This document shows, piece by piece, positions 13,031 through 25,015 of a stretch of DNA of 25,276 nt. Made by a program: the position numbers and the translations under genes. Source of the DNA: Tannerella sp. Lineage in GTDB: Bacteria > Bacteroidota > Bacteroidia > Bacteroidales > Tannerellaceae. Within the stretch, counting starts at the first letter, position 1, and the number at the start of each line of letters is the position of its first letter. Location: positions 1-25,276 of the forward strand of contig JAITVS010000012.1 of NCBI GenBank assembly GCA_031285685.1, given 5' to 3'. The notes below the pieces were generated by a model. That model was not told where the DNA came from and made no database searches. It worked only from the letters and a program-made list of their open reading frames with translations.

Positions 13031-13303
13031 ATGTTCATAGTCATAGGAATTATGTTTTTTGGTATTGCTCTGGGATATTTTTTTCGAAGAAAAACAATCC
13101 TCCAGAAATTAGGAAAACCGATCAGCTATACCATTTATCTTTTATTATTCTTCCTCGGAATATCAGTCGGGGGCAACAGTGAGATTATCAACAACCTGCC
13201 GTCACTCGGAAGTATGGCTTTATTACTCGCGTTTGCCGGGACATTGGGTAGCGTGCTGGCAGCATGGATCGTTTATAAATTATTTTTCAAAAAAGGCTAT
13301 TAA
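13031..13303 (+). CDS. LysO/DUF340-family membrane protein, small N-terminal subunit
   Basis: 90 aa with about three hydrophobic helices. It is followed 4 nt later by the larger DUF340-like ORF, the split arrangement I recall as common in Bacteroidetes. Confidence 0.65.
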   Translation: MFIVIGIMFFGIALGYFFRRKTILQKLGKPISYTIYLLLFFLGISVGGNSEIINNLPSLGSMALLLAFAGTLGSVLAAWIVYKLFFKKGY

Positions 13304-13307
13304 ACAG

Positions 13308-13934
13308 ATGAAGGGAAGTTTGATTGTCGTTGCATTCTTTGTTGCCGGATGTCTGCTTGGCTGGTATTTAAATACCCGTCAGATCACAATAGACGGCGAC
13401 ATCAGCCGCTATGTACTCTATTTGCTCATGTTCCAGGTCGGACTTAGCATCGGAAGCGATAAAAATATATTACAAATACTTAGAAGCCTGCGTCCGAAAT
13501 ACCTGCTTGTTCCGCTTGCTACCATTATCGGCACATTATCATTTTCTGCCCTGGCGGCGTTTTTTATATCCGAATGGAGCCTGTTCGATTGTTTGGCCAT
13601 CGGTAGCGGGTTCGCTTACTATTCTTTGTCATCCATTCTAATCACAGAACTGAAAACCGCTTCATTAGGAGTACAACTTGCCACAGAATTAGGAACAATC
13701 GCACTGATTACAAACATTCTCCGTGAAATAATGGCATTATTGGGAGCTCCCGTATTCGCGAAATTTTTCGGCCGCCTCGCCCCCATTTGTGCCGGAGGAG
13801 CTACCACGATGGACACCACCCTCCCGATCATTACAAAATATTCCGGAAAAGATCTGGTTTTCATCGCAATCCTGCATGGAATTTTAGTTGACTTAAGCGT
13901 TCCTTTTTTAGTTTCTTTTTTCTGTTCGCTGTAA
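13308..13934 (+). CDS. LysO/DUF340-family (lysine-exporter-like) membrane protein, large subunit
   Basis: ATG 13308 gives MKGSLIVVAFFVAGCLLGW and a polytopic hydrophobic protein of 208 aa. The track ORF start at 13179 would overlap the preceding gene. Confidence 0.65.
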   Translation: MKGSLIVVAFFVAGCLLGWYLNTRQITIDGDISRYVLYLLMFQVGLSIGSDKNILQILRSLRPKYLLVPLATIIGTLSFSALAAFFISEWSLFDCLAIGSGFAYYSLSSILITELKTASLGVQLATELGTIALITNILREIMALLGAPVFAKFFGRLAPICAGGATTMDTTLPIITKYSGKDLVFIAILHGILVDLSVPFLVSFFCSL

Positions 13935-16537: not shown

Positions 16538-17560
16538 TCACTCCAATAGCAATTTCAAATATCTACTAACTATTTGCGTATCTCCTACATGCCCGAGTGC
16601 TGTAAGTACAATGTTTTTTTGTGGAGAAACTAATAAATATTGTCCCCCATTACCTTGAATAAAATAATCTCCATTTTTACATATCCATAAAAATAACCCA
16701 TAAGCTGAACGGGGGAATGCTTCTACTGTATTATACTCTTTCACAATCATGTGTTGAGGTGTTGTCATTTTTCTTATCCACTCCGGTGGGATAACTTGCA
16801 AACCATTCCAAATCCCTTGCTGAATCAGCAATTTTCCTATCTTATGAAGGTCGTTGTTGAATAAATAAAGTCCTGTAGCTCCAGCACAATAATTTCCATA
16901 ATCTTTCCAAAAGAAATTTGTTATTTCTAATTTAGAAAAAATTTTATCATTAGCAAAGTGAGATAAATTTTGTCCTGTTATTTCTTGAAAAATGACAGAT
17001 AGTAGGAAGGCAGAAGCATTTGAATAAAGAAAATGTTCGCCGGGTTCATATAATAAAGGCTCGTTACATAAAAAATGAAGAAAAGTCGCAGGAGATATGT
17101 CTTTTATATCTGCTTGAAACAATAACTGTTTATCATAACCGGTTGTATGTGTAAATAGATGTCTTAATGTCACCTTTTGTAGTTTGCTTATATTATCTTT
17201 ATTTTCTATAGTAACTTTATCTTTAATGATAGACCAAATTTTAGTATCAAGATTGATTTGTTCCTCTTTGTATTTTGCTTGCATATCGCAAATTAATATG
17301 CCATAACACAATGCAACGATTAGTTTACTTATTGAGCGAATTTCGTGTAGCTCTTTTTCTTCTATAAAATAATACTGATATTTATTATTTATATCTGAAA
17401 CTATAATACTATCCATAGTAAGAGAATTATTGCGAATATCTTTTACTGCTTGCATGTCGGCAATAATATTATCAAACGTCTCCTTGTACATGTCTGTATT
17501 TTGGATTTTTATGCCAATTATATTCTTTCTTTTCTCCTTCGTTCCAAACTCTATCTTCAT
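16538..17560 (-). CDS. beta-lactamase-fold serine hydrolase (class C / family VIII esterase / D-aminopeptidase-like), operon gene 8
   Basis: SxxK motif SISK (S76, K79 of the long ORF), YxN motif YSN (FLYSNASAF), and a late GNGGQYLLVSPQKNIVL segment. The longest ORF overlaps the upstream gene by 89 nt. Alternative ATGs lie at 17491 (20-nt overlap) and 17455 (16-nt gap). Confidence 0.78.
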   Translation of the reverse strand: MKIEFGTKEKRKNIIGIKIQNTDMYKETFDNIIADMQAVKDIRNNSLTMDSIIVSDINNKYQYYFIEEKELHEIRSISKLIVALCYGILICDMQAKYKEEQINLDTKIWSIIKDKVTIENKDNISKLQKVTLRHLFTHTTGYDKQLLFQADIKDISPATFLHFLCNEPLLYEPGEHFLYSNASAFLLSVIFQEITGQNLSHFANDKIFSKLEITNFFWKDYGNYCAGATGLYLFNNDLHKIGKLLIQQGIWNGLQVIPPEWIRKMTTPQHMIVKEYNTVEAFPRSAYGLFLWICKNGDYFIQGNGGQYLLVSPQKNIVLTALGHVGDTQIVSRYLKLLLE

Positions 17561-18749
17561 AGTCGCACCATTCTGGAGGGAAAAAACCTGATGGGAGTTT
17601 GTTGATAAATTGCTGATTGAAATCTTTTATTTGAGTTAACAAATTATCCCTATCAACATCATTATTATAATTACAGATACAGTTGATAATAGGAGAAACA
17701 ATATATTCGCCTAGCTTAAAGTCAAACATAAAACTGTGCGTTCTGTGATATGAATCATATTTCTCGCCACAATTCTTTATTTTATGTGTATTATATTTAT
17801 AACCGCTCGCTATATCATTATATTGAATGTTAAAATGTTGCATCAAAGGAATGTCGCGTCCAGCAGATTCAAGGTCACGACATACAATCCGTTTTATTTG
17901 GAAATCCTTATTAATTGTTAGCAACATATTTTGTGCATGTGCTTCAAGTTCAATACCGCCAAAAATCAAAGCATCAAAATATGTGTGGAATAGTGGTTTT
18001 AGAATATTATCTATTAAAAAAACTGCAAGTGGTAAAGTTTGCTTCTTAAATAACTGAATAATTAGTGGCTCATCTTGCTCTATACAAGGAGTTCTATCTG
18101 TGCCGGGTATATATTCTTTGCTGAATAGTGAAAAAAAAGGAATTAAAGATTCGCACTCATCAATATATGGATATGGAGAACTTTCTCTAAATAATACCCC
18201 TAATTCATACATAACATTACCTAACGGTAAATAGGCTATTTTTCCGTAATCCTCTCGAAAAATACTAAATCTTTGATTGACTTTATTTTCGTCTATTATT
18301 CGTTTTAAAATATTTGTAACTTCACAACTTGATTGAATTTTTTCCTTTGTCATATGTCTTGGTATTCTTCCAAGAATTTCAGTATAGGCAAGTTTTATGA
18401 AAGTCTTATTTGTTAAGTTAAAGACAGTACGCCCACTTGCTGTGGGAACAACTATAATATCTAAAGGTTTTTCACTTATATTTGGGGAAATAAATTCATT
18501 TTCTACCATATCAGGATGAACAACAATACAATCTTTTGGAATAGACCAACAAGGCATATTACCAAACTCCTCTACAGTCACTTTGTCATTGAATCTGAAT
18601 ATTTTAGCTGCAAAGGATATAGTTCCCGACAATGGTCTTGTATTCTCGGATGTCGTATTGTTAATATTACTTCTTGAACCATCATTAACATATCGCTCCG
18701 CCTTAATGAAAGATTCTATTGGGTTACTTATAAATTCTTCTATTTTCAT
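17472..18749 (-). CDS. IucA/IucC-like (NRPS-independent-siderophore-synthetase-like) ATP-dependent ligase, short form, operon gene 7
   Basis: 425 aa. The ordered motifs are VVHPDM, VVPTASGRTV, IKLAYTEILGRIPR, FSIFRED and GIELEAHAQNMLLTINKDFQIKRIVCRDLES. I recall these matching the PTSSxRT, K...R and EAHxQN...RD ATP/Mg-binding motifs of AcsD/IucA-type enzymes. The start overlaps the upstream stop as ATGA. Confidence 0.55.
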   Translation of the reverse strand: MKIEEFISNPIESFIKAERYVNDGSRSNINNTTSENTRPLSGTISFAAKIFRFNDKVTVEEFGNMPCWSIPKDCIVVHPDMVENEFISPNISEKPLDIIVVPTASGRTVFNLTNKTFIKLAYTEILGRIPRHMTKEKIQSSCEVTNILKRIIDENKVNQRFSIFREDYGKIAYLPLGNVMYELGVLFRESSPYPYIDECESLIPFFSLFSKEYIPGTDRTPCIEQDEPLIIQLFKKQTLPLAVFLIDNILKPLFHTYFDALIFGGIELEAHAQNMLLTINKDFQIKRIVCRDLESAGRDIPLMQHFNIQYNDIASGYKYNTHKIKNCGEKYDSYHRTHSFMFDFKLGEYIVSPIINCICNYNNDVDRDNLLTQIKDFNQQFINKLPSGFFPPEWCDYEDRVWNEGEKKEYNWHKNPKYRHVQGDV

Positions 18750-19567
18750 TTTTGAATCTTTTCTTCTAATATCATTTTCTCTATCTTGACAAGGCTGTCA
18801 AAACATAGTTTTAAATATTCTTGTTCGGTATATTTGTTTTTTTGTTCTTCCGAACAACGGACTTCTAATGTCAATTCAATATCGGAATTGTATTTAGAAA
18901 TATTTCTGACAAGATTTTTCCAATCAATATTTCCATCAAGAGGAAGTAAGTGTTTATCGGCAATTCCGTCATTATCATTTAAGTGTACACATGTTAATTT
19001 ATCGCCAAAAATATTCCATGGAAAAGTTTCTACATTTTTTGTAAAGGCATTTGCATGTCCACTGTCAAAACAAAATTTCAGTTTGTCACTTTCTAATTTT
19101 TTAAAAACAAATTCAAGATAATCAAGTCTGCGAAGATTTTCCAAACAAAGAATAATTCCATATTTCTCACATACATCTAAAATTCTGGAAATACGTTTTA
19201 TTCCCGATTCACACATTAATGGGGGAGCTGTGCCTCCAGTAATATGTGCGACAACAGTTTTAATCCCATAATTATGTGCAAATGAAATTTCATTTATGAG
19301 TTGTTTTTCATATTTATCAGCTTCTGCATCTTCTGTCCAAAGAGCGTTAACATATTGAGAATCTATCAGTTGCCCATCAATAAATTTTTTATAAGAAAGA
19401 TGTAATGTTTCTATGTTTAACTTTGATTTATTTATCAAATCAATATATTCGAGGGGATGGTATTGCGAGTATATAAAAACACCGTCAAATCCAGCATCTT
19501 CTATGAGGCTGATTCTTTCCGCCGGTTCTGCCGACATTTTATAATTAAAACCAATGTTCTTTTTCAT
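18746..19567 (-). CDS. xylose-isomerase-like TIM-barrel protein (sugar-phosphate isomerase/epimerase / AP-endonuclease-2 superfamily), operon gene 6
   Basis: 273 aa. The metal-ligand motif series is LCLENL, FDSGHANAF, VHLNDNDGIADKHLLPLDGNIDW and TLEV. Confidence 0.78.
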   Translation of the reverse strand: MKKNIGFNYKMSAEPAERISLIEDAGFDGVFIYSQYHPLEYIDLINKSKLNIETLHLSYKKFIDGQLIDSQYVNALWTEDAEADKYEKQLINEISFAHNYGIKTVVAHITGGTAPPLMCESGIKRISRILDVCEKYGIILCLENLRRLDYLEFVFKKLESDKLKFCFDSGHANAFTKNVETFPWNIFGDKLTCVHLNDNDGIADKHLLPLDGNIDWKNLVRNISKYNSDIELTLEVRCSEEQKNKYTEQEYLKLCFDSLVKIEKMILEEKIQK

Positions 19568-19574
19568 TTGTTTT

Positions 19575-20279
19575 TTAATTTAGGATGTGTAACAAATCTG
19601 AAAACAAATTAATCACTTTTACTGTTTTTTGTAAACTTGATGGTAAATGTTTTTTTCGAAAATTAAACAGGCAACTGTCAATTCCTATATTCAAAGCTCC
19701 TTGAATATCTGTTTCTAAATTATCTCCAACGATTAAGATATTTTCTTTATCAATACTGTAACAAGAAATTATCTTTTCGATAAATTGTGAATCAGGTTTT
19801 TGTACTCCTAAATCCTCCGAAGAATAAAAACCATCTATGTAAGTTCTTATTCTTGAATTTTCAATTTTATTCTTTCTTGGATAATTCGTTCCATTGGTAG
19901 CTATAATTTTAATTATACTTTTATCAATAGCCTTCAATGTTTTATAAACACTATTGATAAGGACTCCTTTTGTTGAAAATTCAAGTTGCTTTGCTGAGAA
20001 ATCTGAAGGATTAATATCATTTTGCTTTTGCAAAGAACTTAAAAAGACCGATGCTCGCTCAACTCTAAATTTGGTAAAATCATCTTGATTAACTAATATT
20101 TGATGACTTTTGTGTACATTTTTGTTAATCGTTTTATATAAGTGATATATGTTTTCAGTATATGATAATCCAAAATATTCGCAAGCCATTTTTAATGCTT
20201 TACGCTCCGTTTTCTCATAATCAAACAATGTATCGTCCAAATCGAAAATAATGAGTTTATATTTTGTTTTATCAACCAT
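19575..20279 (-). CDS. HAD-superfamily phosphatase, YjjG-like (nucleotidase-like) subfamily IA, operon gene 5
   Basis: 234 aa. HAD motif I is IIFDLDDTLFD, motif II is IIATNGT, motif III is a Lys in QKPDSQF, and motif IV is VGDNLETDIQGALNIGIDS. Confidence 0.82.
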   Translation of the reverse strand: MVDKTKYKLIIFDLDDTLFDYEKTERKALKMACEYFGLSYTENIYHLYKTINKNVHKSHQILVNQDDFTKFRVERASVFLSSLQKQNDINPSDFSAKQLEFSTKGVLINSVYKTLKAIDKSIIKIIATNGTNYPRKNKIENSRIRTYIDGFYSSEDLGVQKPDSQFIEKIISCYSIDKENILIVGDNLETDIQGALNIGIDSCLFNFRKKHLPSSLQKTVKVINLFSDLLHILN

Positions 20280-20284
20280 AACAA

Positions 20285-20974
20285 TTAAAATACATTTAAG
20301 TCATCTCGCTCAACAATTAACGAATAGTCTTCTTGACTGGAAAGTTCCAAATCGAATTTTTCTCTTTCCGGTAAAATAAAGGCTTCAAACTGTTCATTTC
20401 TTTCATCACATTTTCTTTTAACTTCCTCACGAGATAAGTTTTGTTCTCCATCACGAGCCCTACTTATTCTCCTACTTACCTCTACGTCTCTATTGCACAT
20501 TAAGAAAATTCCAAATGTTTGGGGGAGTTTTTCAAGAAATGCACTTCCGACACCTTCAATGATAGTTATCGCAACTTGTGCGTTGACCTCTACAAATTCA
20601 TTTCTTTTCTTTGGCTTAAAATAACAGTTTTTTCCCTGAGTTAAAGAATAAACTATAACTTCCGGAGCAGAGAGATAATACGATTCTTTAAATGAGGTTG
20701 TATATTCGCTTTCACGAGTTTTCCCATTTATGTCAGTCCAAACTTTTTTCCCACTTTTTCGCATTTTTGTATCAAGGACAAATTCGTCCATATCAATACA
20801 ATTAACATTCAAGCCGAGAGCCTTAACTTCTGTCACAAGTTCTTCACTTAATGTTGTTTTCCCAGCACCACCATTGCCAGACAAAAAGATAAATCTATAG
20901 TCTTTATCCAAGCAAAAATCAATTACCTTCTTGACAATTTGTTTACTTACATACGATTTTTTTACTTCTTTCAT
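20285..20974 (-). CDS. P-loop kinase, uridine-kinase/phosphoribulokinase-like, operon gene 4
   Basis: 229 aa. Walker A is LSGNGGAGKTT and the Walker-B-like segment is ITIIEGVG. The lid-like VSRRISRARDGEQ and later FEAFILPEREKFDLEL parallel the Udk/PRK layout. Confidence 0.7.
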   Translation of the reverse strand: MKEVKKSYVSKQIVKKVIDFCLDKDYRFIFLSGNGGAGKTTLSEELVTEVKALGLNVNCIDMDEFVLDTKMRKSGKKVWTDINGKTRESEYTTSFKESYYLSAPEVIVYSLTQGKNCYFKPKKRNEFVEVNAQVAITIIEGVGSAFLEKLPQTFGIFLMCNRDVEVSRRISRARDGEQNLSREEVKRKCDERNEQFEAFILPEREKFDLELSSQEDYSLIVERDDLNVF

Positions 20975-21004: not shown

Positions 21005-21586
21005 CTATTTATTGAGAATATATTTGTCAAACCATTCCACATGTTTGAATATATGCAAATCATTATTTGATAAATATGCGACTATATTGGGACTATCACT
21101 ATTATCAATGAAATATACAGTTTCAGACATTTTAGTAATCTGTCCGATATTATCCATTGTCATAAAATATCTTGTTCGCACCTTTTCTTCAGAAATGGTG
21201 TCAGCATTTTCTGTATCGTATCGCTTTTTTGTTCGTTCTATGTTAATATCAACCGAACTTGTTCCAATAAAAAACGATACAATGTTATACTCATATTGTT
21301 CTTTTATCAATGCTATTCTATCAATTTTGTGTTGAGCTGTTGGACATAATTCATAAATAAAATCATTTCCTTTTTTACAAACTCTATACATTTTATATTC
21401 AACCAATTTATCAGCTCTTCGATACCCCTCTGAGAGTTTATTGCCTTTAGTATCAAAAAAAAATCTTTTATAAACGTCTGAACCAATGTATTCTATCTCT
21501 TGATAAGGTTCATAAGAAAAAATACGGCTTCCTACAACTGTCTTTCCTGAACCAATACTCCCAACAAGAAGATAAATTGTTTTCAT
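21005..21586 (-). CDS. small P-loop kinase (zeta-toxin / AAA_33-like), operon gene 3
   Basis: 193 aa. Walker A VGSIGSGKT sits at residues 8-16, and an Asp follows in IGSDVY. The size and layout are those of a compact nucleoside/small-molecule kinase. An ATGA overlap couples it to the preceding 60-aa ORF. Confidence 0.65.
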   Translation of the reverse strand: MKTIYLLVGSIGSGKTVVGSRIFSYEPYQEIEYIGSDVYKRFFFDTKGNKLSEGYRRADKLVEYKMYRVCKKGNDFIYELCPTAQHKIDRIALIKEQYEYNIVSFFIGTSSVDINIERTKKRYDTENADTISEEKVRTRYFMTMDNIGQITKMSETVYFIDNSDSPNIVAYLSNNDLHIFKHVEWFDKYILNK

Positions 21587-21765
21587 AAGACTACCTCCTT
21601 CTTGATTTGTTCAATTTGATTAAAATCGTCATCATCCCAGTATGTCTTTTTATTCCATTCAGAAAGTGCTGAGTCAAAACGTAACGACTCTTTATTTAAT
21701 TGCTTAATGATGTCAATAAATGAATCTGTATAAGTTGTATTTTCTATGATATGTATTTCTTTCAT
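21583..21765 (-). CDS. 60-aa acidic hypothetical protein, operon gene 2
   Basis: The ORF is bracketed by ATGA overlaps with both neighbours, which argues it is translated. It contains an acidic patch YWDDDDFNQIEQ and no recognisable domain. Confidence 0.5.
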   Translation of the reverse strand: MKEIHIIENTTYTDSFIDIIKQLNKESLRFDSALSEWNKKTYWDDDDFNQIEQIKKEVVL

Positions 21766-23300
21766 TTCCTTTTTAATTCTCGTTTTTCTTTTTTTAAATA
21801 ATCTTTAGCTAACTTAACAGATTTTTCAAATTCCATATCGGGTTGTCTATCTATCTTTTTAATACTCGATACCACATCCGAAATAGAACTTTCACAATCC
21901 TTGATTTTTACCAATTTTCTCTCCTTACTCAAATTAGTATTATCTTTTACAAGAAATTTATGTTGTAAAGGGTAAGCAGTAATTAATAAGGCAGAATTTC
22001 GGAAACACAAGTCTGTCCGTGTAGTACACTTTTTTATAGTTTCATTCAATTTATCTATCACGCTGTTTATAGTTTCTGCATCTACTTCTTCAAGTTGTAT
22101 TTCATTCATCAAACTATCATACCGTATCCCCTCTTTACTATTTAAGCCAATTTCTGTGCCAACATACGTATTTGCATAGGCAATCGCTTCATTTACTATT
22201 CTATGCTTTTCTTCGATATTACTATTTATTCGTATTTTTTTAATATTATTCCTCGCAAAAGCATAATAATACTCCTTTACAATTTTACTTCTTGCTTCTT
22301 CAGACAAAGAAGCATATATCTTAATACTTTGACGAAGACGATAAACTTGTTCTGTTTGTGAAAATCCAAGAGTAGATTCTTCTACATTATTTATATATTT
22401 CCAAATATCTAAGTCAGATAAAGTATCAATACTTGCTGTTGTAGCCTCAAACATATTGGTAATATTATTTTTAATGCAATTCATTTTGTCATTATCATTA
22501 CTGTGAGGACACGATTGTGTTCTGCATTTTTTCTCATTGCGCTCAATACAAACACCTTTCATATGGATAATTGTACCGCGAGAAAGAATTAATTTAATCT
22601 TATTTTCATTCAATATGGCATCATTCATTTGAGCAATATCCCTATCTAAAAAAATACCAGCTAAATGCCTGTAGCCTTTGAGTGTCATTTTTAAAAATTC
22701 TTGACTTTCATTTTGTTTGCTGTTCTCGAATAATCTGATAGATTCTATTTCTGCCTCACGAGTTCCTTTTCTTATGGTTTCGACAGCCTCGTTCCAGTCT
22801 TCTTTGTCTGCTTGGTATAAAGACCATCCTAAATCATCAAGATTAAGCATTACGCTAACGTATTGTTTTGACCTATGCTTTCCACCAATGACGATATTAT
22901 TCAATTCCCTATCACATTTTTTTATTGCTTCCTGTACTTTTTTGCCAATTCTAACCCTATTCGCATTTTGCTTGGTATGAAATAACATTTCACTTATTTG
23001 TAGTCCTAACATGATTGCATTTTCATAACGTCTGTTTTTTATTTCCTTATTTAATATTGCAATAAGACTCATTCTATGTTCATAGACAATCAATATTATA
23101 CCAAATATCAAAAGAGGAACTATTAGGATAATAATGGTTATAGCAGTTTGAAAAAATTTATCACTCATAACGTAACCTATGGCAAGACCAATGATAACTG
23201 ACACTATTGATTCTATAAAGAATTGTCCCCAAGATAATATTTTAGGATTAGAAAGTAGTTCTTCAAAATTATTTTTAATTTTTCGCTTCAACATATTCAT
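21762..23300 (-). CDS. membrane-anchored all-helical protein of unknown function, operon gene 1
   Basis: 512 aa. Two N-terminal TM helices span about aa 24-45 and 52-73. A long Lys/Glu-rich helical region follows. A single Cys/His cluster reads C251-x7-C259-x4-C264-x-H266-x8-C275. No domain was recognised. Confidence 0.7.
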   Translation of the reverse strand: MNMLKRKIKNNFEELLSNPKILSWGQFFIESIVSVIIGLAIGYVMSDKFFQTAITIIILIVPLLIFGIILIVYEHRMSLIAILNKEIKNRRYENAIMLGLQISEMLFHTKQNANRVRIGKKVQEAIKKCDRELNNIVIGGKHRSKQYVSVMLNLDDLGWSLYQADKEDWNEAVETIRKGTREAEIESIRLFENSKQNESQEFLKMTLKGYRHLAGIFLDRDIAQMNDAILNENKIKLILSRGTIIHMKGVCIERNEKKCRTQSCPHSNDNDKMNCIKNNITNMFEATTASIDTLSDLDIWKYINNVEESTLGFSQTEQVYRLRQSIKIYASLSEEARSKIVKEYYYAFARNNIKKIRINSNIEEKHRIVNEAIAYANTYVGTEIGLNSKEGIRYDSLMNEIQLEEVDAETINSVIDKLNETIKKCTTRTDLCFRNSALLITAYPLQHKFLVKDNTNLSKERKLVKIKDCESSISDVVSSIKKIDRQPDMEFEKSVKLAKDYLKKEKRELKRK

Positions 23301-23351: not shown

Positions 23352-24311
23352 CTAAACCCGTTCAACAATCTGAATAAATACTTTCGCTACCTCAGTTTCA
23401 TCAGGAATAGAAACAAACACCAACTGCGATAATTCCAACAAGTAAACATCTTTCAAAAAGTTCCACAATGCAGGAAAATCGGTAACAAGAGGCGATTGTA
23501 TAATTTCCTTTTCGCCCCAATTTTCAGGCGTATCAAAGGCTTGTCTATCATGTTCTAAAAGTTCGGCAAAATCCTGTTTAAAATCAGGCGTTTGAATATA
23601 CGCCGCACATTCTTCATCTTTTGCCAAGTAATACAAGTCGTAAAAATGCCTGATTTTAGCGGCAAGAGCGCGGCGCGGATTTTCGGTAAACGAAAAACGA
23701 AACAACGACACCAATTTTTCAATCATCGTTTGCCGTTTATCTAACACATTCAGCACAAACGGCTGTAATCCGTATTCTTCAATGGCAGCAGCCTGATTGT
23801 TTACTGTGAGATATTCCGTAATAAACGAGGTGATTTCCAGTTTTACATACGGATATGGATTCGCAAATGAATTAATTTCAACAATCATCCTGTTTGGAAT
23901 AATACTGTCCACTTTTCCCAACAAAGTAGGATATTCAAAAATGGATTTGCGAAACATTGAGCCTTTACTCGTTACACCATTTTCTACAATTTCAGTTAGT
24001 TCTGTGGTTATTTCCTTTTCTATATTTCGAATTTTTGTTTTCACGGCGTTGCCGCTCAAATTTTCGTTAATAATAGCAATATCAATATCTTCCGAGAACC
24101 GATTGATAAGGCGATAACCTTTTGAAAGCGAAGTACCTCCTTTGAACACAGCATTTTCCACCTCATTACAGCAAGACAAGCGGTTAAGAGCCAACGTAAT
24201 CCAATAATCTTTTTCCACAAAAGCCGGAATAATATTGAGATGCTTTGCCGTGAATGTGATAAGCGCAGAAAAATCCGCGGTATTCGTATGTAAATTCATC
24301 GTATGTACCAT
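23352..24311 (-). CDS. abiEii: AbiEii/AbiGii-family nucleotidyltransferase toxin
   Basis: 319 aa. FKGGTSLSKGYRLINRFSEDIDIAI matches the KGGTxL...RxSxDID nucleotidyltransferase core. The internal Met at 24299 gives a classic ATGA overlap with the AbiEi stop and may be the true start. Confidence 0.82.
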   Translation of the reverse strand: MVHTMNLHTNTADFSALITFTAKHLNIIPAFVEKDYWITLALNRLSCCNEVENAVFKGGTSLSKGYRLINRFSEDIDIAIINENLSGNAVKTKIRNIEKEITTELTEIVENGVTSKGSMFRKSIFEYPTLLGKVDSIIPNRMIVEINSFANPYPYVKLEITSFITEYLTVNNQAAAIEEYGLQPFVLNVLDKRQTMIEKLVSLFRFSFTENPRRALAAKIRHFYDLYYLAKDEECAAYIQTPDFKQDFAELLEHDRQAFDTPENWGEKEIIQSPLVTDFPALWNFLKDVYLLELSQLVFVSIPDETEVAKVFIQIVERV

Positions 24312-25015
24312 TTTTTTGGATTAGACAAAATTTCACTTGAAATATCTAATTTGTAAGACGATTGGTGATTCAACGCCTTGTAAAGAACTGTCGTATCTTC
24401 ATTTTCGTTGTTCGTTTCCAGAATTGCTCCCAAAAGAGCAATAGTCGAAGGCGAATATTTTATTGCCAATCGTTTAGCCGTATTAATTTGCTCCTGCGTT
24501 AGTTGCTTAAATAACACCAATAGACGACGGCAAATCTCATCAGGCATCGCATCGGGAATACTTTTGAAAAAACGCAAACAATCCAACAACTGCAATACAG
24601 GGACATTTGTCTTTGTAATCGTATTTTGTTGAATAATAAAACTAATCCGATAATTGCCGCGAGTAATCGGTTTCTTTTCCTTACTGACAGCAATTTGCAG
24701 CATTGCAGGCACTTGCGTTGTCAATCCCAATTTATTAAAAATAGAATAACCTGTTAGATAACCAATAATTTTACCGTTTTTTTCAAGTAAATCTTTAACA
24801 GTTTGGAAAGTATCGGGCGGAAGTTCACCGAATTTGCTCACTTGCGGTTTGTAAAAACGACCTTTACACAAACGCCTGATTTGCCCTGCCGCTACCACAT
24901 TATTCAAAATCTTGGTAACAGTATTCTGCTTATCCAACGGCACAGGAAAATCCGCTGCCGTAAAAACAAATCCGTCAGAGAATTTAGCAATCGTTTTTTT
25001 TATTGTATCAGTCAT
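24296..25015 (-). CDS. abiEi: AbiEi-like / DUF6088-family antitoxin-transcriptional regulator
   Basis: 239 aa with an N-terminal winged-helix-like segment (VFTAADFPVPLDKQNTVTKILNNVVAAGQIRRLCKGRFYKP). It sits immediately upstream of and overlapping the AbiEii gene. Confidence 0.75.
   Translation of the reverse strand: MTDTIKKTIAKFSDGFVFTAADFPVPLDKQNTVTKILNNVVAAGQIRRLCKGRFYKPQVSKFGELPPDTFQTVKDLLEKNGKIIGYLTGYSIFNKLGLTTQVPAMLQIAVSKEKKPITRGNYRISFIIQQNTITKTNVPVLQLLDCLRFFKSIPDAMPDEICRRLLVLFKQLTQEQINTAKRLAIKYSPSTIALLGAILETNNENEDTTVLYKALNHQSSYKLDISSEILSNPKKWYIR

Follow-up and report, generated by a model that had tools for sequence, protein, structure and literature searches.

One phosphate-handle pathway runs from ManNAc kinase through Neu5Ac-9-P synthase to the HAD phosphatase NANP, and streptomycin 6-phosphate, with StrA and StrK, provides another example. 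NRPS-independent siderophore (NIS) clusters, such as asbABCDEF, combine an IucA/IucC ligase with the TIM-barrel dehydratase AsbF; to our knowledge, the known NIS pathways include neither kinases nor a phosphatase. Capuramycin-type clusters encode the AmpC-like transacylase CapW, the APH-type self-resistance kinase CapP, and the carboxyl methyltransferase CapS, and CapW and CapP together set a precedent for a transacylase and an antibiotic-type kinase in one pathway (PMC6384614).

Here, we analyzed a kinase gene and the HAD gene next to it in a stretch of DNA of 25,276 nucleotides (the window, by which we mean this whole stretch). A preliminary description, made from the sequence alone, had presented the two genes as an operon encoding a uridine-kinase-like enzyme and a YjjG-type nucleotidase. 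We found that the pair does lie in one operon but is only part of a larger unit. The kinase and the HAD belong to a rare, undescribed mobile enzyme cassette of six to eight genes (five to eight across its variants) that passes between bacteria that are not related to each other.

RESULTS

The kinase and HAD genes are adjacent on the minus strand, as had been described, with a 5-nt gap between them (junction TAA-ttgtt-ATG). The remaining intergenic distances in the operon range from -4 to 30 nt. Because the catalytic residues are retained in relatives and the two genes are adjacent in 8/8 independent type I cassettes (defined below), we concluded that both ORFs are real genes and not chance reading frames. 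The genes of the cassette and its immediate neighbors are listed in Table 1.

Table 1. Genes of the cassette and the neighboring AbiE pair, with positions in the window
Feature	Position	Strand	Evidence
Beta-lactamase-fold serine enzyme, 340 aa in longest ORF (start ambiguous)	16538..17560	minus	Pfam Beta-lactamase, 84 bits
Short IucA/IucC-like ATP-dependent ligase, 425 aa	17472..18749	minus	Pfam IucA_IucC, 42.8 bits
Xylose-isomerase-like TIM barrel, 273 aa	18746..19567	minus	Pfam AP_endonuc_2, 82.4 bits
HAD-IA phosphatase, 234 aa, helical cap	19575..20279	minus	HAD_2, TIGR02254, AF2, Foldseek
P-loop small-molecule kinase, 229 aa	20285..20974	minus	Pfam PRK match, AF2 model, Foldseek
Second P-loop kinase, 193 aa, zeta-toxin/AAA_33-like	21005..21586	minus	Pfam Zeta_toxin, 26.7 bits
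60-aa ORF, 4-nt overlap coupling	21583..21765	minus	ORF list
512-aa protein, N-terminal hydrophobic helices; first cassette gene	21762..23300	minus	Hydrophobicity scan
AbiEi/AbiEii pair (context only), directly upstream in same low-GC island	23352..25015	minus	PADLOC

We found the previously reported Walker A motif, GNGGAGKTT, at residues 33 to 41 of the 229-aa kinase. The protein matches Pfam PRK (PF00485) with 39.3 bits, which is above the gathering score (cutoff, 22). Its AlphaFold (AF2) model has a pLDDT of 92.4. Foldseek matched the kinase to PanK, UCK2, PRK, FrcK, and glycerate kinase at a TM score of about 0.6 and 15 to 20% identity, with a probability of 1.0 for PanK, UCK2, and PRK, and placed it about equidistant from all five. 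Its identity to solved members of the PRK/UCK/PanK superfamily, including CoaA and glycerate 3-kinase, is 15 to 20% at most. Like these members, it has the common fold, the Walker A motif, an Asp after strand 2, an IxEG Walker-B-like strand, and an arginine-rich lid; D63 aligns with the Asp of the Udk QDSYY motif. Unlike them, it has invariant residues of its own (F65, R72, W79, Y99, K122, and Q195), and it falls under every curated equivalog cutoff of the superfamily (Udk, 26 versus 220 bits; PRK, 23 versus 236 bits). The residues that are invariant across both cassette copies and orphan copies are the Walker A motif, D63, F65, R72, W79, Y99, K122, R168, R169, R172, R192, and Q195. Only 70 representatives of the kinase clade were found among 1.84 billion clusters. 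Sequence comparison places the 229-aa kinase in a tiny, isolated clade within the PRK/UCK/PanK superfamily.

The kinase had been likened to uridine kinase. We found that the Udk model (TIGR00235/NF004018) scores 26.2 to 26.6 bits on the 229-aa kinase, against an equivalog cutoff of 220.3, and that true Udk proteins of the same order reach 245 to 268 bits. Six such Udk proteins invariantly have the motifs NxDHP, YxYxTCxR, and ERGR, which are linked to nucleoside binding; in the 229-aa kinase, these motifs have no counterpart. In a profile-profile alignment with these six proteins (probability, 86.5%; identity, 17%; low confidence between motifs), the two sides had no more in common than the P-loop, the catalytic Asp, IxEG, and two Arg residues of the lid. 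By its score, the kinase is not a uridine kinase, and the nucleoside identity given earlier is not supported.

We also considered a phosphoribulokinase acting with a RuBP phosphatase, which would shuffle phosphate on ribulose. The phosphoribulokinase model NF005655 gave 22.8 bits on the 229-aa kinase (cutoff, 236). In a phmmer alignment with the cyanobacterial PRK 6hzk, the PRK His lies opposite the invariant F65 and the first Arg lies opposite T69. Going by the residue roles in Rhodobacter PRK, we take this His and Arg to be the residues that bind the phosphate of ribulose-5-phosphate. We dropped this pair, as the PRK substrate residues are absent and the HAD scored 62 bits versus 330 for the haloarchaeal RuBP 5-phosphatase model.

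The 234-aa HAD protein has all four HAD motifs, in agreement with the preliminary description: D13-x-D15-D16-T17, T128-N129-G130, K161, and G185-D186-x4-D191. These are invariant or conservatively retained in 40 relatives, with T128 replaced by S in type II cassettes. The signature is of the DxDxT phosphatase type and not the single-Asp dehalogenase form. The protein matches Pfam HAD_2 with 67.7 bits, and its AF2 model (pLDDT, 95.7) consists of a Rossmannoid core and a helical cap. In the model, the cap has four helices, which is typical of small-molecule HAD-IA enzymes. The top Foldseek match was YfnB (3i76; TM score, 0.8; identity, 25%), followed by BT 3qnm and then NANP (TM score, 0.78).

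The HAD had been assigned to the YjjG type. We found that its best NCBIfam match is indeed YjjG_YfnB (TIGR02254) but that the score, 121.6 to 122.1 bits, does not reach the cutoff of 159.9. Two further nucleotidase models, PynA and PRK09449, gave 98 and 96 bits. Like the pyrimidine 5'-nucleotidases YjjG, YfnB, and PynA, the cassette HAD has the same four motifs and the same cap topology, with R75 in common. It differs from YfnB-like proteins at the subfamily-specific residues S102, G105, P134, R135, and S153; at the position of R135, 96% of 73 YfnB-like proteins have Q. It also differs from YjjG and YfnB in that it is always embedded in the cassette, as were 11/11 relatives of at least 39% identity with readable context. 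The host genome encodes a true YjjG elsewhere (contig C4; 232.8 bits against TIGR02254), and therefore the HAD of the island is not the housekeeping enzyme. Membership in YjjG is not supported, given the score, the HAD's own invariant residues, and the separate host YjjG. The protein forms a cassette-specific subfamily that is nearest to YjjG/YfnB.

In seven type I cassettes, the second P-loop kinase, of 193 aa, adjoins the PRK-like kinase; in the eighth, L015, it follows the HAD. Homologues with 34 to 43% identity are present in all type I cassettes checked. The zeta-like kinase was never found outside the cassette, and only 2 word-sharing relatives of it were found. There is no detectable similarity between the 193-aa and 229-aa kinases beyond the P-loop, and we rejected the idea that the two are paralogues. 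Comparison with zeta/epsilon toxin-antitoxin pairs, which are stand-alone two-gene modules, showed that the 60-aa ORF precedes the 193-aa kinase (Zeta_toxin, 26.7 bits) and that no such small ORF is called in the Clostridia cassettes. The small ORF is confined to the two Bacteroidota-type cassettes, with a 62-aa version at the same place in L003.

The 512-aa protein is swappable. By BLASTP among the copies, we found that other versions of the cassette have a non-homologous protein of 800 to 900 aa with C-terminal TM segments. The 903-aa protein of L015 is homologous to the 815-aa protein of type II cassettes (E, 3e-37) and not to the 512-aa protein of the window. The membrane gene is seemingly absent in one type I cassette, L101.

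The three genes downstream of the HAD encode the TIM barrel, the ligase, and the beta-lactamase-fold enzyme. The TIM barrel is confined to type I cassettes. It is 40 to 55% identical in seven of them by tblastn, and L201 has an AP_endonuc_2 gene at the same place. Its best NCBIfam match is CbiR, at 35 bits and far under the cutoff, and its PDB sequence neighbors are MJ1311 and TTHB071. The IucA/IucC-like ligase is a core gene of both cassette types, with 40 to 54% identity across them. The beta-lactamase-fold enzyme, also a core gene of both, was present in every type I cassette and every complete type II cassette examined. Its best NCBIfam match is 3-succinylated cholic acid synthase (98 bits), again far under the cutoff.

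We distinguished eight type I cassettes (window, L003, L010/L011, L012/L013/L102, L014, L015, L101, and L201). In type I cassettes, the gene for the membrane protein is followed by those for the zeta-like kinase, the PRK-like kinase, the HAD, the TIM barrel, the Iuc-like ligase, and the beta-lactamase-fold enzyme. In all eight, the HAD gene lies next to that of the PRK-like kinase, even in L015, where the zeta-like gene is relocated. The cassettes occur in Bacteroidota and Clostridia, on mobile DNA: on an ICE or beside serine recombinases, phage lysis genes, AbiE, a Lar-like gene, or a UvrD/PD-(D/E)xK protein.

In a second architecture, type II (L098, L099, and L100), the HAD, the Iuc-like ligase, and the beta-lactamase-fold enzyme are retained at 33 to 40% identity. 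Type II cassettes are without the P-loop kinase and the TIM barrel and have a kinase of the APH fold. It scores best against APH(3'), APH(2''), and macrolide phosphotransferases, far under their cutoffs. In type II, the P-loop kinase is thus displaced by an unrelated fold, and the phosphatase is kept. The minimal type II set is a kinase and a phosphatase, a ligase and a serine hydrolase, and a large membrane protein. L098 also has a PEMT/ICMT-type methyltransferase beside the APH kinase.

The same HAD occurs with kinases of unrelated folds, and we therefore concluded that phosphorylation followed by dephosphorylation is intrinsic to the cassette system. The earlier proposal that the kinase and the HAD are functionally coupled is borne out both by this second partnership and by the invariable adjacency of the two genes in type I cassettes. 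Outside the four HAD motifs, type I and type II HADs agree at the invariant residues T24, E25, R75, R135, and K138, and because of this identity, the two sets of HADs may share one substrate class.

We also found orphan kinase copies, 55 to 69% identical, without the other cassette genes, mostly in Patescibacteria and also in other metagenomic genomes. In the kinase tree, the orphans nest inside the cassette clade, after the L003 branch, at a starred node (99/96) that they share with the cassette kinase of the window. Every invariant active-site residue is retained in the orphan kinases. Their neighbors vary and include GNAT, AAA_18 kinase, small HAD, cupin, and SDR genes or a serine recombinase. 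An all-against-all BLAST search of these neighbors gave no conserved partner, and NCBIfam recognized only a PEP-utilizer swivel domain, GNAT, and AAA_18 kinase among them. As the orphans occur without cassette genes, the substrate of the kinase cannot be a cassette-only intermediate.

Against PADLOC-DB 2.0, the HAD, the ligase, and the beta-lactamase-fold enzyme had no match, and the 229-aa kinase had P-loop-level matches only (E of 6e-4 or worse). The sole PADLOC system match was the neighboring pair (AbiEii, 295 bits; AbiEi, 162 bits). AbiE is absent beside other cassettes and is not part of the cassette elsewhere. We found none of the ligase, HAD, or kinase in the sequenced phages, plasmids, and IMG/VR collections searched. 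A full-text literature search for the gene combination returned nothing relevant; the Gaia paper names IucC in passing only.

DISCUSSION

The reading that we favor, as a tentative one that falls a little short of an even chance, is that a small-molecule intermediate carries the phosphate as a handle or mask and that the kinase and the HAD work in one pathway and not on general nucleotide pools. It starts from the genes, folds, catalytic residues, operon packing, co-occurrence with non-homologous kinases in two architectures, mobility, and rarity established above. We infer that these two enzymes work on one and the same molecule, in the order given below, and the HAD cap and the kinase superfamily point to a small metabolite as the substrate. 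According to this model, the PRK/UCK/PanK-type kinase would turn an available metabolite into a phosphorylated intermediate, and the zeta-like kinase and the TIM-barrel enzyme would perhaps join in making it. While the phosphate is in place, the IucA/IucC-like ligase would spend ATP to form an amide or ester bond, and the beta-lactamase-fold enzyme would transfer or trim an acyl group on the phosphorylated intermediate. The capped HAD-IA phosphatase would then strip the phosphate, and the final compound would be released. The large membrane-anchored protein would be an interchangeable accessory, possibly for export or docking or as a target.

Counting for this model are the tight operon, the recurrent gene set, the displacement of the kinase in type II, the DxDxT signature with its four-helix cap, the residues on which type I and type II HADs agree, the cassette setting of the HAD relatives with readable context, the separate host YjjG, and the capuramycin precedent. 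Counting against it, a cytoplasmic kinase and phosphatase made from one transcript could run a futile cycle unless their specificities differ. The stand-alone orphan kinases and the large membrane protein, which the model does not explain, also count against it, and the order of genes does not prove the order of reactions. The preliminary description had proposed three roles for the pair; of these, an intermediate that is phosphorylated and later deprotected is the best fit, and the nucleotide-pool role was rejected in the form of a plain house-cleaning pair. The antiviral theme has the mobile DNA and the adjacent AbiE in its favor and the lack of PADLOC matches for the enzymes against it.

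A self-protection cycle is unlikely. Here, the product would be toxic, the kinase would inactivate it in the producer by phosphorylation, the HAD would reactivate it or clear the phosphorylated form, and the orphans would be acquired resistance genes. The nesting of the orphans within the cassette clade at a node with the window kinase (99/96), their intact active sites, and their variable accessory contexts or positions next to a serine recombinase are consistent with this, and the zeta-like kinase, with only 2 relatives found, has no such spread. The nearest relatives of the type II kinase, albeit far under their cutoffs, are the resistance enzymes APH(3'), APH(2''), and macrolide phosphotransferases, and CapP is a self-resistance kinase inside a biosynthetic cluster (PMC6384614). 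However, an inactivating kinase that is cotranslated with a reactivating cytoplasmic phosphatase seems self-defeating, the surroundings of the orphans are not recognized resistance islands, and the spread of the orphans would fit a salvage role just as well. A further reading, which we regard as rather improbable, is that the cassette is a mobile, self-contained factory for a bioactive small molecule used in competition or defense. The phosphate would be its safety catch: the kinase would keep the compound or its precursor harmless within the producer, the HAD would arm it, and the orphans in Patescibacteria and other bacteria would be captured immunity genes. If this were true, the producers and resistance genes would form a natural network that is visible in metagenomes only.

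Patescibacteria depend on salvage, which would suit a nucleoside kinase. We nevertheless consider it improbable that a nucleoside kinase and a YjjG-type nucleotidase adjust or clean nucleotide pools here or make and destroy an analogue, for example, as an antiviral measure. It is true that the best family matches of the HAD are three pyrimidine nucleotidase models (122, 98, and 96 bits), that YfnB is its nearest structure, that the top structural matches of the kinase include UCK2 (TM score, 0.6), and that AbiE lies on the same island. But the kinase stays at 26.2 bits against the 220.3 of Udk without the Udk motifs, and PanK, PRK, FrcK, and glycerate kinase match it equally well. The HAD is under the YjjG cutoff, with its own invariant residues, in a host that has a true YjjG. 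The nucleotide reading also leaves the ligase and the beta-lactamase-fold enzyme, which are always present, without a role, and the type II kinase has the APH fold, a family not known for nucleoside salvage. In its plain form, a uridine kinase with a YjjG house-cleaning partner, we rejected it: both proteins are under their cutoffs, the kinase is without the Udk motifs, and the host encodes a YjjG elsewhere.

We give as little credence to a regulatory or energy-burning defense cycle, in which two opposing pairs would switch the ligand of a membrane effector or, when triggered, use up ATP. Kinase with phosphatase and ligase with serine hydrolase make up just two such pairs in the minimal type II set, which is completed by a large membrane protein. 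Non-homologous types of this protein replace one another while the enzymes stay constant, a modularity typical of defense systems, and the cassettes lie on an ICE or near serine recombinases, phage lysis genes, AbiE, a Lar-like gene, or a UvrD/PD-(D/E)xK protein. Against this, no enzyme has a PADLOC match, no cassette was found in the phage, plasmid, and IMG/VR collections searched, L101 is seemingly without a membrane gene, no sensor domain was recognized, and the reading is purely architectural. Nucleic acid end healing is highly improbable. As in T4 Pnkp systems, broken RNA or DNA would be the target of a kinase and a 3'-phosphatase, together with a ligase and an Endo IV-like TIM barrel. 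The TIM barrel is in the endonuclease IV family (weak nfo matches; E, 3e-4) and the AAA_33/zeta-like kinase family includes polynucleotide kinases, but we rejected it on the HAD, which is fully capped and resembles small-molecule phosphatases and not the capless Pnkp type, and on the ligase, which is IucA/IucC-like (carboxylate adenylating, small molecule) and not a nucleotidyl-transferase, and type II cassettes have an APH kinase and no TIM barrel.

If the phosphate-handle reading is true, the cassette would be an undescribed, horizontally mobile small-molecule pathway common to gut and environmental Bacteroidota and Clostridia. The two unrelated kinase folds with one conserved phosphatase, and the kinase that has escaped as a stand-alone gene into Patescibacteria, offer entry points to its product and its biological role. 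The locus is also a warning against naming such proteins "uridine kinase" or "YjjG nucleotidase" by best hit.

The combination of a kinase, a siderophore-type ligase, a beta-lactamase-fold acyl transfer enzyme, and a phosphatase is matched by no known biosynthetic or defense system, and each of the closest systems shares a part of it. Like the proposed cassette pathway, phosphate-handle pathways have the kinase first, then transforming steps, and a dedicated phosphatase last. Unlike the NANP and streptomycin pathways, the cassette has no sialic acid or aminoglycoside genes, and its transforming enzymes would be the IucA/IucC-like ligase and the beta-lactamase-fold enzyme. Siderophore clusters likewise join an IucA/IucC-type ligase with a xylose-isomerase-like TIM barrel; in the cassette, the ligase is shortened, and genes for siderophore transport, a hydroxylase, or a decarboxylase are absent. 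With capuramycin, the cassette would share beta-lactamase-fold acyl transfer and a hydroxyl-phosphorylating kinase in one pathway, and L098, with its methyltransferase and APH kinase, adds to the parallel, which is an analogy of logic only. In Streptomyces, the capuramycin genes form large clusters that include NRPS and sugar genes and no HAD or Iuc-like ligase, whereas the cassette consists of five to eight genes on the mobile DNA of gut and environmental bacteria.

Gene row and its surroundings

The kinase and the phosphatase lie in a tightly packed row of minus-strand genes in the right half of the window (about 15.7-25.1 kb), where the GC content is ~30%. The left half (GC content ~43%) is a Bacteroidota-type polysaccharide utilization locus, which encodes a SusC-like receptor, SusD, GH2, and a GH63-like protein. 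The source is a MAG in 423 contigs, with 92% completeness and 5% contamination, and the linkage of the island to this locus on one contig depends on that assembly. At 13031-13934, just left of the composition shift, is a LysO-type lysine exporter gene (Pfam Lys_export, 238 bits) with an overlapping 90-aa ORF upstream.

As the preliminary description had stated, the kinase and HAD ORFs are adjacent, with 5 nt between the kinase stop and the HAD start (TAA-ttgtt-ATG), and the kinase Walker A and all four HAD motifs are present. At 17472-17560, the ligase gene shares 89 nt with the longest ORF of the beta-lactamase-fold gene. Because tblastn matches from other cassettes start at residue 24-67 of this longest ORF, the real start is probably downstream.

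Genes of the low-GC row and surroundings of related type I cassettes
Locus	Feature	Position	Strand	Remark
Window	AbiEi	24296-25015	-	
Window	AbiEii	23352-24311	-	
Window	512-aa protein	21762-23300	-	hydrophobic helices at N-terminus
Window	60-aa ORF	21583-21765	-	
Window	zeta-like P-loop kinase	21005-21586	-	193 aa
Window	PRK-like kinase	20285-20974	-	229 aa
Window	HAD phosphatase	19575-20279	-	234 aa
Window	TIM barrel	18746-19567	-	xylose-isomerase-like
Window	IucA/IucC-like ligase	17472-18749	-	short
Window	beta-lactamase-fold enzyme	16538-17560	-	
L003	type I cassette			Saprospiraceae MAG
L010/L011	type I cassette			amid type IV secretion and conjugation genes
L012/L013/L102	type I cassette			adjoins serine recombinases and phage lysis genes

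The kinase is PRK-like

The 229-aa kinase matched PRK in Pfam (PF00485; 39.3 bits, cut-off 22) and fell far under every curated NCBIfam equivalog cut-off (Udk, ~27 bits versus 180-220; PRK, 23 versus 236). Its AlphaFold model, based on 35 relatives, was confident (pLDDT 92.4). Foldseek matched it to PanK, human UCK2, archaeal and cyanobacterial PRK, FrcK, and glycerate 3-kinase about equally (TM about 0.6, 15-20% identity), with no clear best.

From the same order we took six Udk proteins that are genuine by score (245-266 bits) and aligned their profile with the kinase family (probability 86.5%, 17% identity). The two families correspond at the P-loop, at the catalytic Asp (D63), along the IxEG strand, and at two arginines of the lid. 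In this alignment, the NxDHP, YxYxTCxR, and ERGR motifs, invariant in the six Udk proteins, had no counterpart in the kinase family. With these motifs missing and a Udk score so far below the cut-off, membership in the Udk family fails for this protein. Cassette and orphan (stand-alone) copies share the invariant residues D63, F65, R72, W79, Y99, K122, R168, R169, R172, R192, and Q195; the many basic ones hint that the substrate may be anionic or phosphorylated.

The kinase clade is tiny: clustering at 90% identity gave 39 clusters out of 5.8 billion, and a search at E up to 0.001 gave 70 representatives among 1.84 billion. It was absent from the 24 same-genus genomes and 16 others of the order that we searched. 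No Udk scored above the curated cut-off in the window's own genome or the 18 same-genus relatives searched; 15 of these 19 genomes have instead a Udk-like domain (42-83 bits; e.g., G000:C54:2967-3563), nearly always within an open frame of about 560-700 aa. Over its first 74 residues, P0039, which is also 229 aa long and lies on contigs of up to 63 kb, is 68% identical to the kinase N-terminus, whereas its precomputed Pfam match is PF14511. This protein may be chimeric or a decayed copy.

The kinase also occurs outside cassettes

Orphan kinases are 55-69% identical to the window kinase, and two come from Paceibacterota and Nomurabacteria (NCBI records). Their loci are varied, with no other cassette gene and no conserved neighbor. 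In a maximum likelihood tree (midpoint root; genomic context known for a minority of tips), a clade supported at 100/99 was sister to the Clostridia cassette kinases. Its first branch was the Saprospiraceae cassette kinase (L003); the window kinase then grouped with orphans such as that of locus L001 (99/96), and other orphans made up the remainder. The zeta-like kinase has no comparable spread, with two relatives only in a search for word-sharing relatives. Because orphan copies stand without other cassette genes, we concluded that the kinase does not need the cassette in order to function and that it acts either on a widely available molecule or on a compound encountered from outside.

At L001 (7231-11147), the orphan (69% identical to the window kinase) sits between scpA and scpB, together with two other proteins: one of 356 aa, whose PEP-utilizer swivel domain is of the kind found in PEP synthase and rifampicin phosphotransferase, and one of 238 aa that matched no family. 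At a second orphan locus (L006:6980-10678), the kinase directly follows an AAA_18 kinase, a short HAD, and a GNAT; this group adjoins a Thoeris-like ThsB-TIR/ThsA-Macro pair and is upstream of pentose-phosphate genes.

The HAD forms its own group near YfnB and YjjG

The best NCBIfam match of the HAD was YjjG_YfnB (122 bits, under the 159.9 cut-off), followed by PynA and then the E. coli-type pyrimidine nucleotidase model. Its closest solved relative is B. subtilis YfnB (E 7e-20 by sequence, TM 0.8 by structure), followed by 3qnm from B. thetaiotaomicron, whose function is not known, and N-acetylneuraminate-9-phosphate phosphatase. The confident model (pLDDT 95.7) combines a Rossmannoid core with a helical cap. 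As motif I takes the DxDxT form, the protein is predicted to be a phosphotransferase, not a dehalogenase-type hydrolase.

Cassette HADs shared the catalytic motifs and R75 with 73 YfnB/YjjG-like proteins from reference genomes, the motif I columns being identical by construction because the 73 were retrieved by the motif I pattern. The two sets differed at R135, P134, S153, S102, G105, and Y21, which are invariant among the cassette HADs; the R135 position is Q in 96% of the 73 proteins. A genuine YjjG (232.8 bits) is encoded on another contig of the same genome. The earlier label "YjjG-like" is fair for ancestry, but because the HAD scores below the cut-off, has its own invariant positions, and coexists with a true YjjG, membership in the YjjG family fails.

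Two cassette architectures share a core

We located the loci of relatives and then compared all window proteins with them by tblastn. At the examined loci, HAD relatives were always in one of two architectures. Type I has the order large membrane protein, zeta-like kinase, PRK-like kinase, HAD, TIM barrel, Iuc-like ligase, and beta-lactamase fold, in eight distinct versions (window, L003, L010/L011, L012/L013/L102, L014, L101, L201, and L015). The L010 and L011 cassettes are the same (identical tblastn values) with different flanks; in L011 (11733-12676, compared with L010, 11733-12677) the beta-lactamase-fold gene is broken into 203-aa and 124-aa ORFs, and decay of one copy is suggested. The L201 cassette adjoins a convergent 1027-aa UvrD-helicase/PD-(D/E)xK protein (L201:6381-9464), another defense-like neighbor.

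In a Clostridia MAG (L015:7315-15253), the PRK-like kinase comes first and is followed by the HAD, a 264-aa zeta-like kinase extended at its N-terminus, the TIM barrel, the ligase, and the beta-lactamase fold; thus, the adjacency of kinase and HAD survives rearrangement. Downstream, a 903-aa protein shows homology with the large protein of type II (E 3e-37) but none with the large membrane protein of type I. L015 is a hybrid, with the enzymes of type I and the large protein of type II.

Type II cassettes (L098, 2585-8699; L099, 2020-8121; L100; and partial L103) start with an APH-fold kinase and continue with an 805-815-aa protein that has two hydrophobic segments in its C-terminal part, the beta-lactamase fold, the Iuc-like ligase, and the HAD. 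By tblastn of the window proteins, they contain neither P-loop kinase nor TIM barrel. Aminoglycoside and macrolide phosphotransferases are the closest families to the APH kinase, which misses their cut-offs by a wide margin. L099 and L100 adjoin a serine recombinase; L098 additionally has nearby a GH3-type ligase, a PEMT/ICMT methyltransferase, and a 674-aa HATPase-like protein.

Comparing type I, type II, and the hybrid, we concluded that the constant core consists of the HAD, the ligase, the beta-lactamase-fold enzyme, and a kinase, whatever its fold, and that the membrane protein, second kinase, and TIM barrel are modular. The HAD-subfamily invariant residues are identical in both types. 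The strongest evidence that phosphorylation and then dephosphorylation are intrinsic to the system comes from the pairing of this one phosphatase with a non-homologous kinase.

A close HAD relative was found in 1 of 185,579 species-representative genomes (L015), and a metagenome scan gave three further loci. The ligase had no match in phage or plasmid collections, and the HAD and kinase had none in IMG/VR. A full-text literature search found no description of the gene combination.

Proposed role of the cassette

Beyond the observed genes, folds, catalytic residues, synteny, and distribution, we infer substrates and step order as follows. Our best reading, a tentative one, is that phosphate serves as a handle or mask. 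The product of the kinase would be a phosphorylated intermediate on which the ATP-dependent ligase and the beta-lactamase-fold acyl-transfer enzyme build, and the HAD would remove the phosphate last.

An immunity cycle, in which the kinase would inactivate a toxic product and the orphan kinases would be resistance genes, seems unlikely. The literal pairing of a nucleoside kinase with a nucleotidase is improbable, as is a defense system in which opposing enzyme pairs regulate or fuel a membrane effector; the cassette enzymes had no matching PADLOC model. Nucleic-acid end healing is very improbable.

Sialic acid synthesis follows a kinase, synthase, and HAD-phosphatase route, which the phosphate-handle reading would parallel. 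Capuramycin clusters, in which the AmpC-like transacylase CapW is paired with the APH-type kinase CapP (PMC6384614), offer a second parallel.
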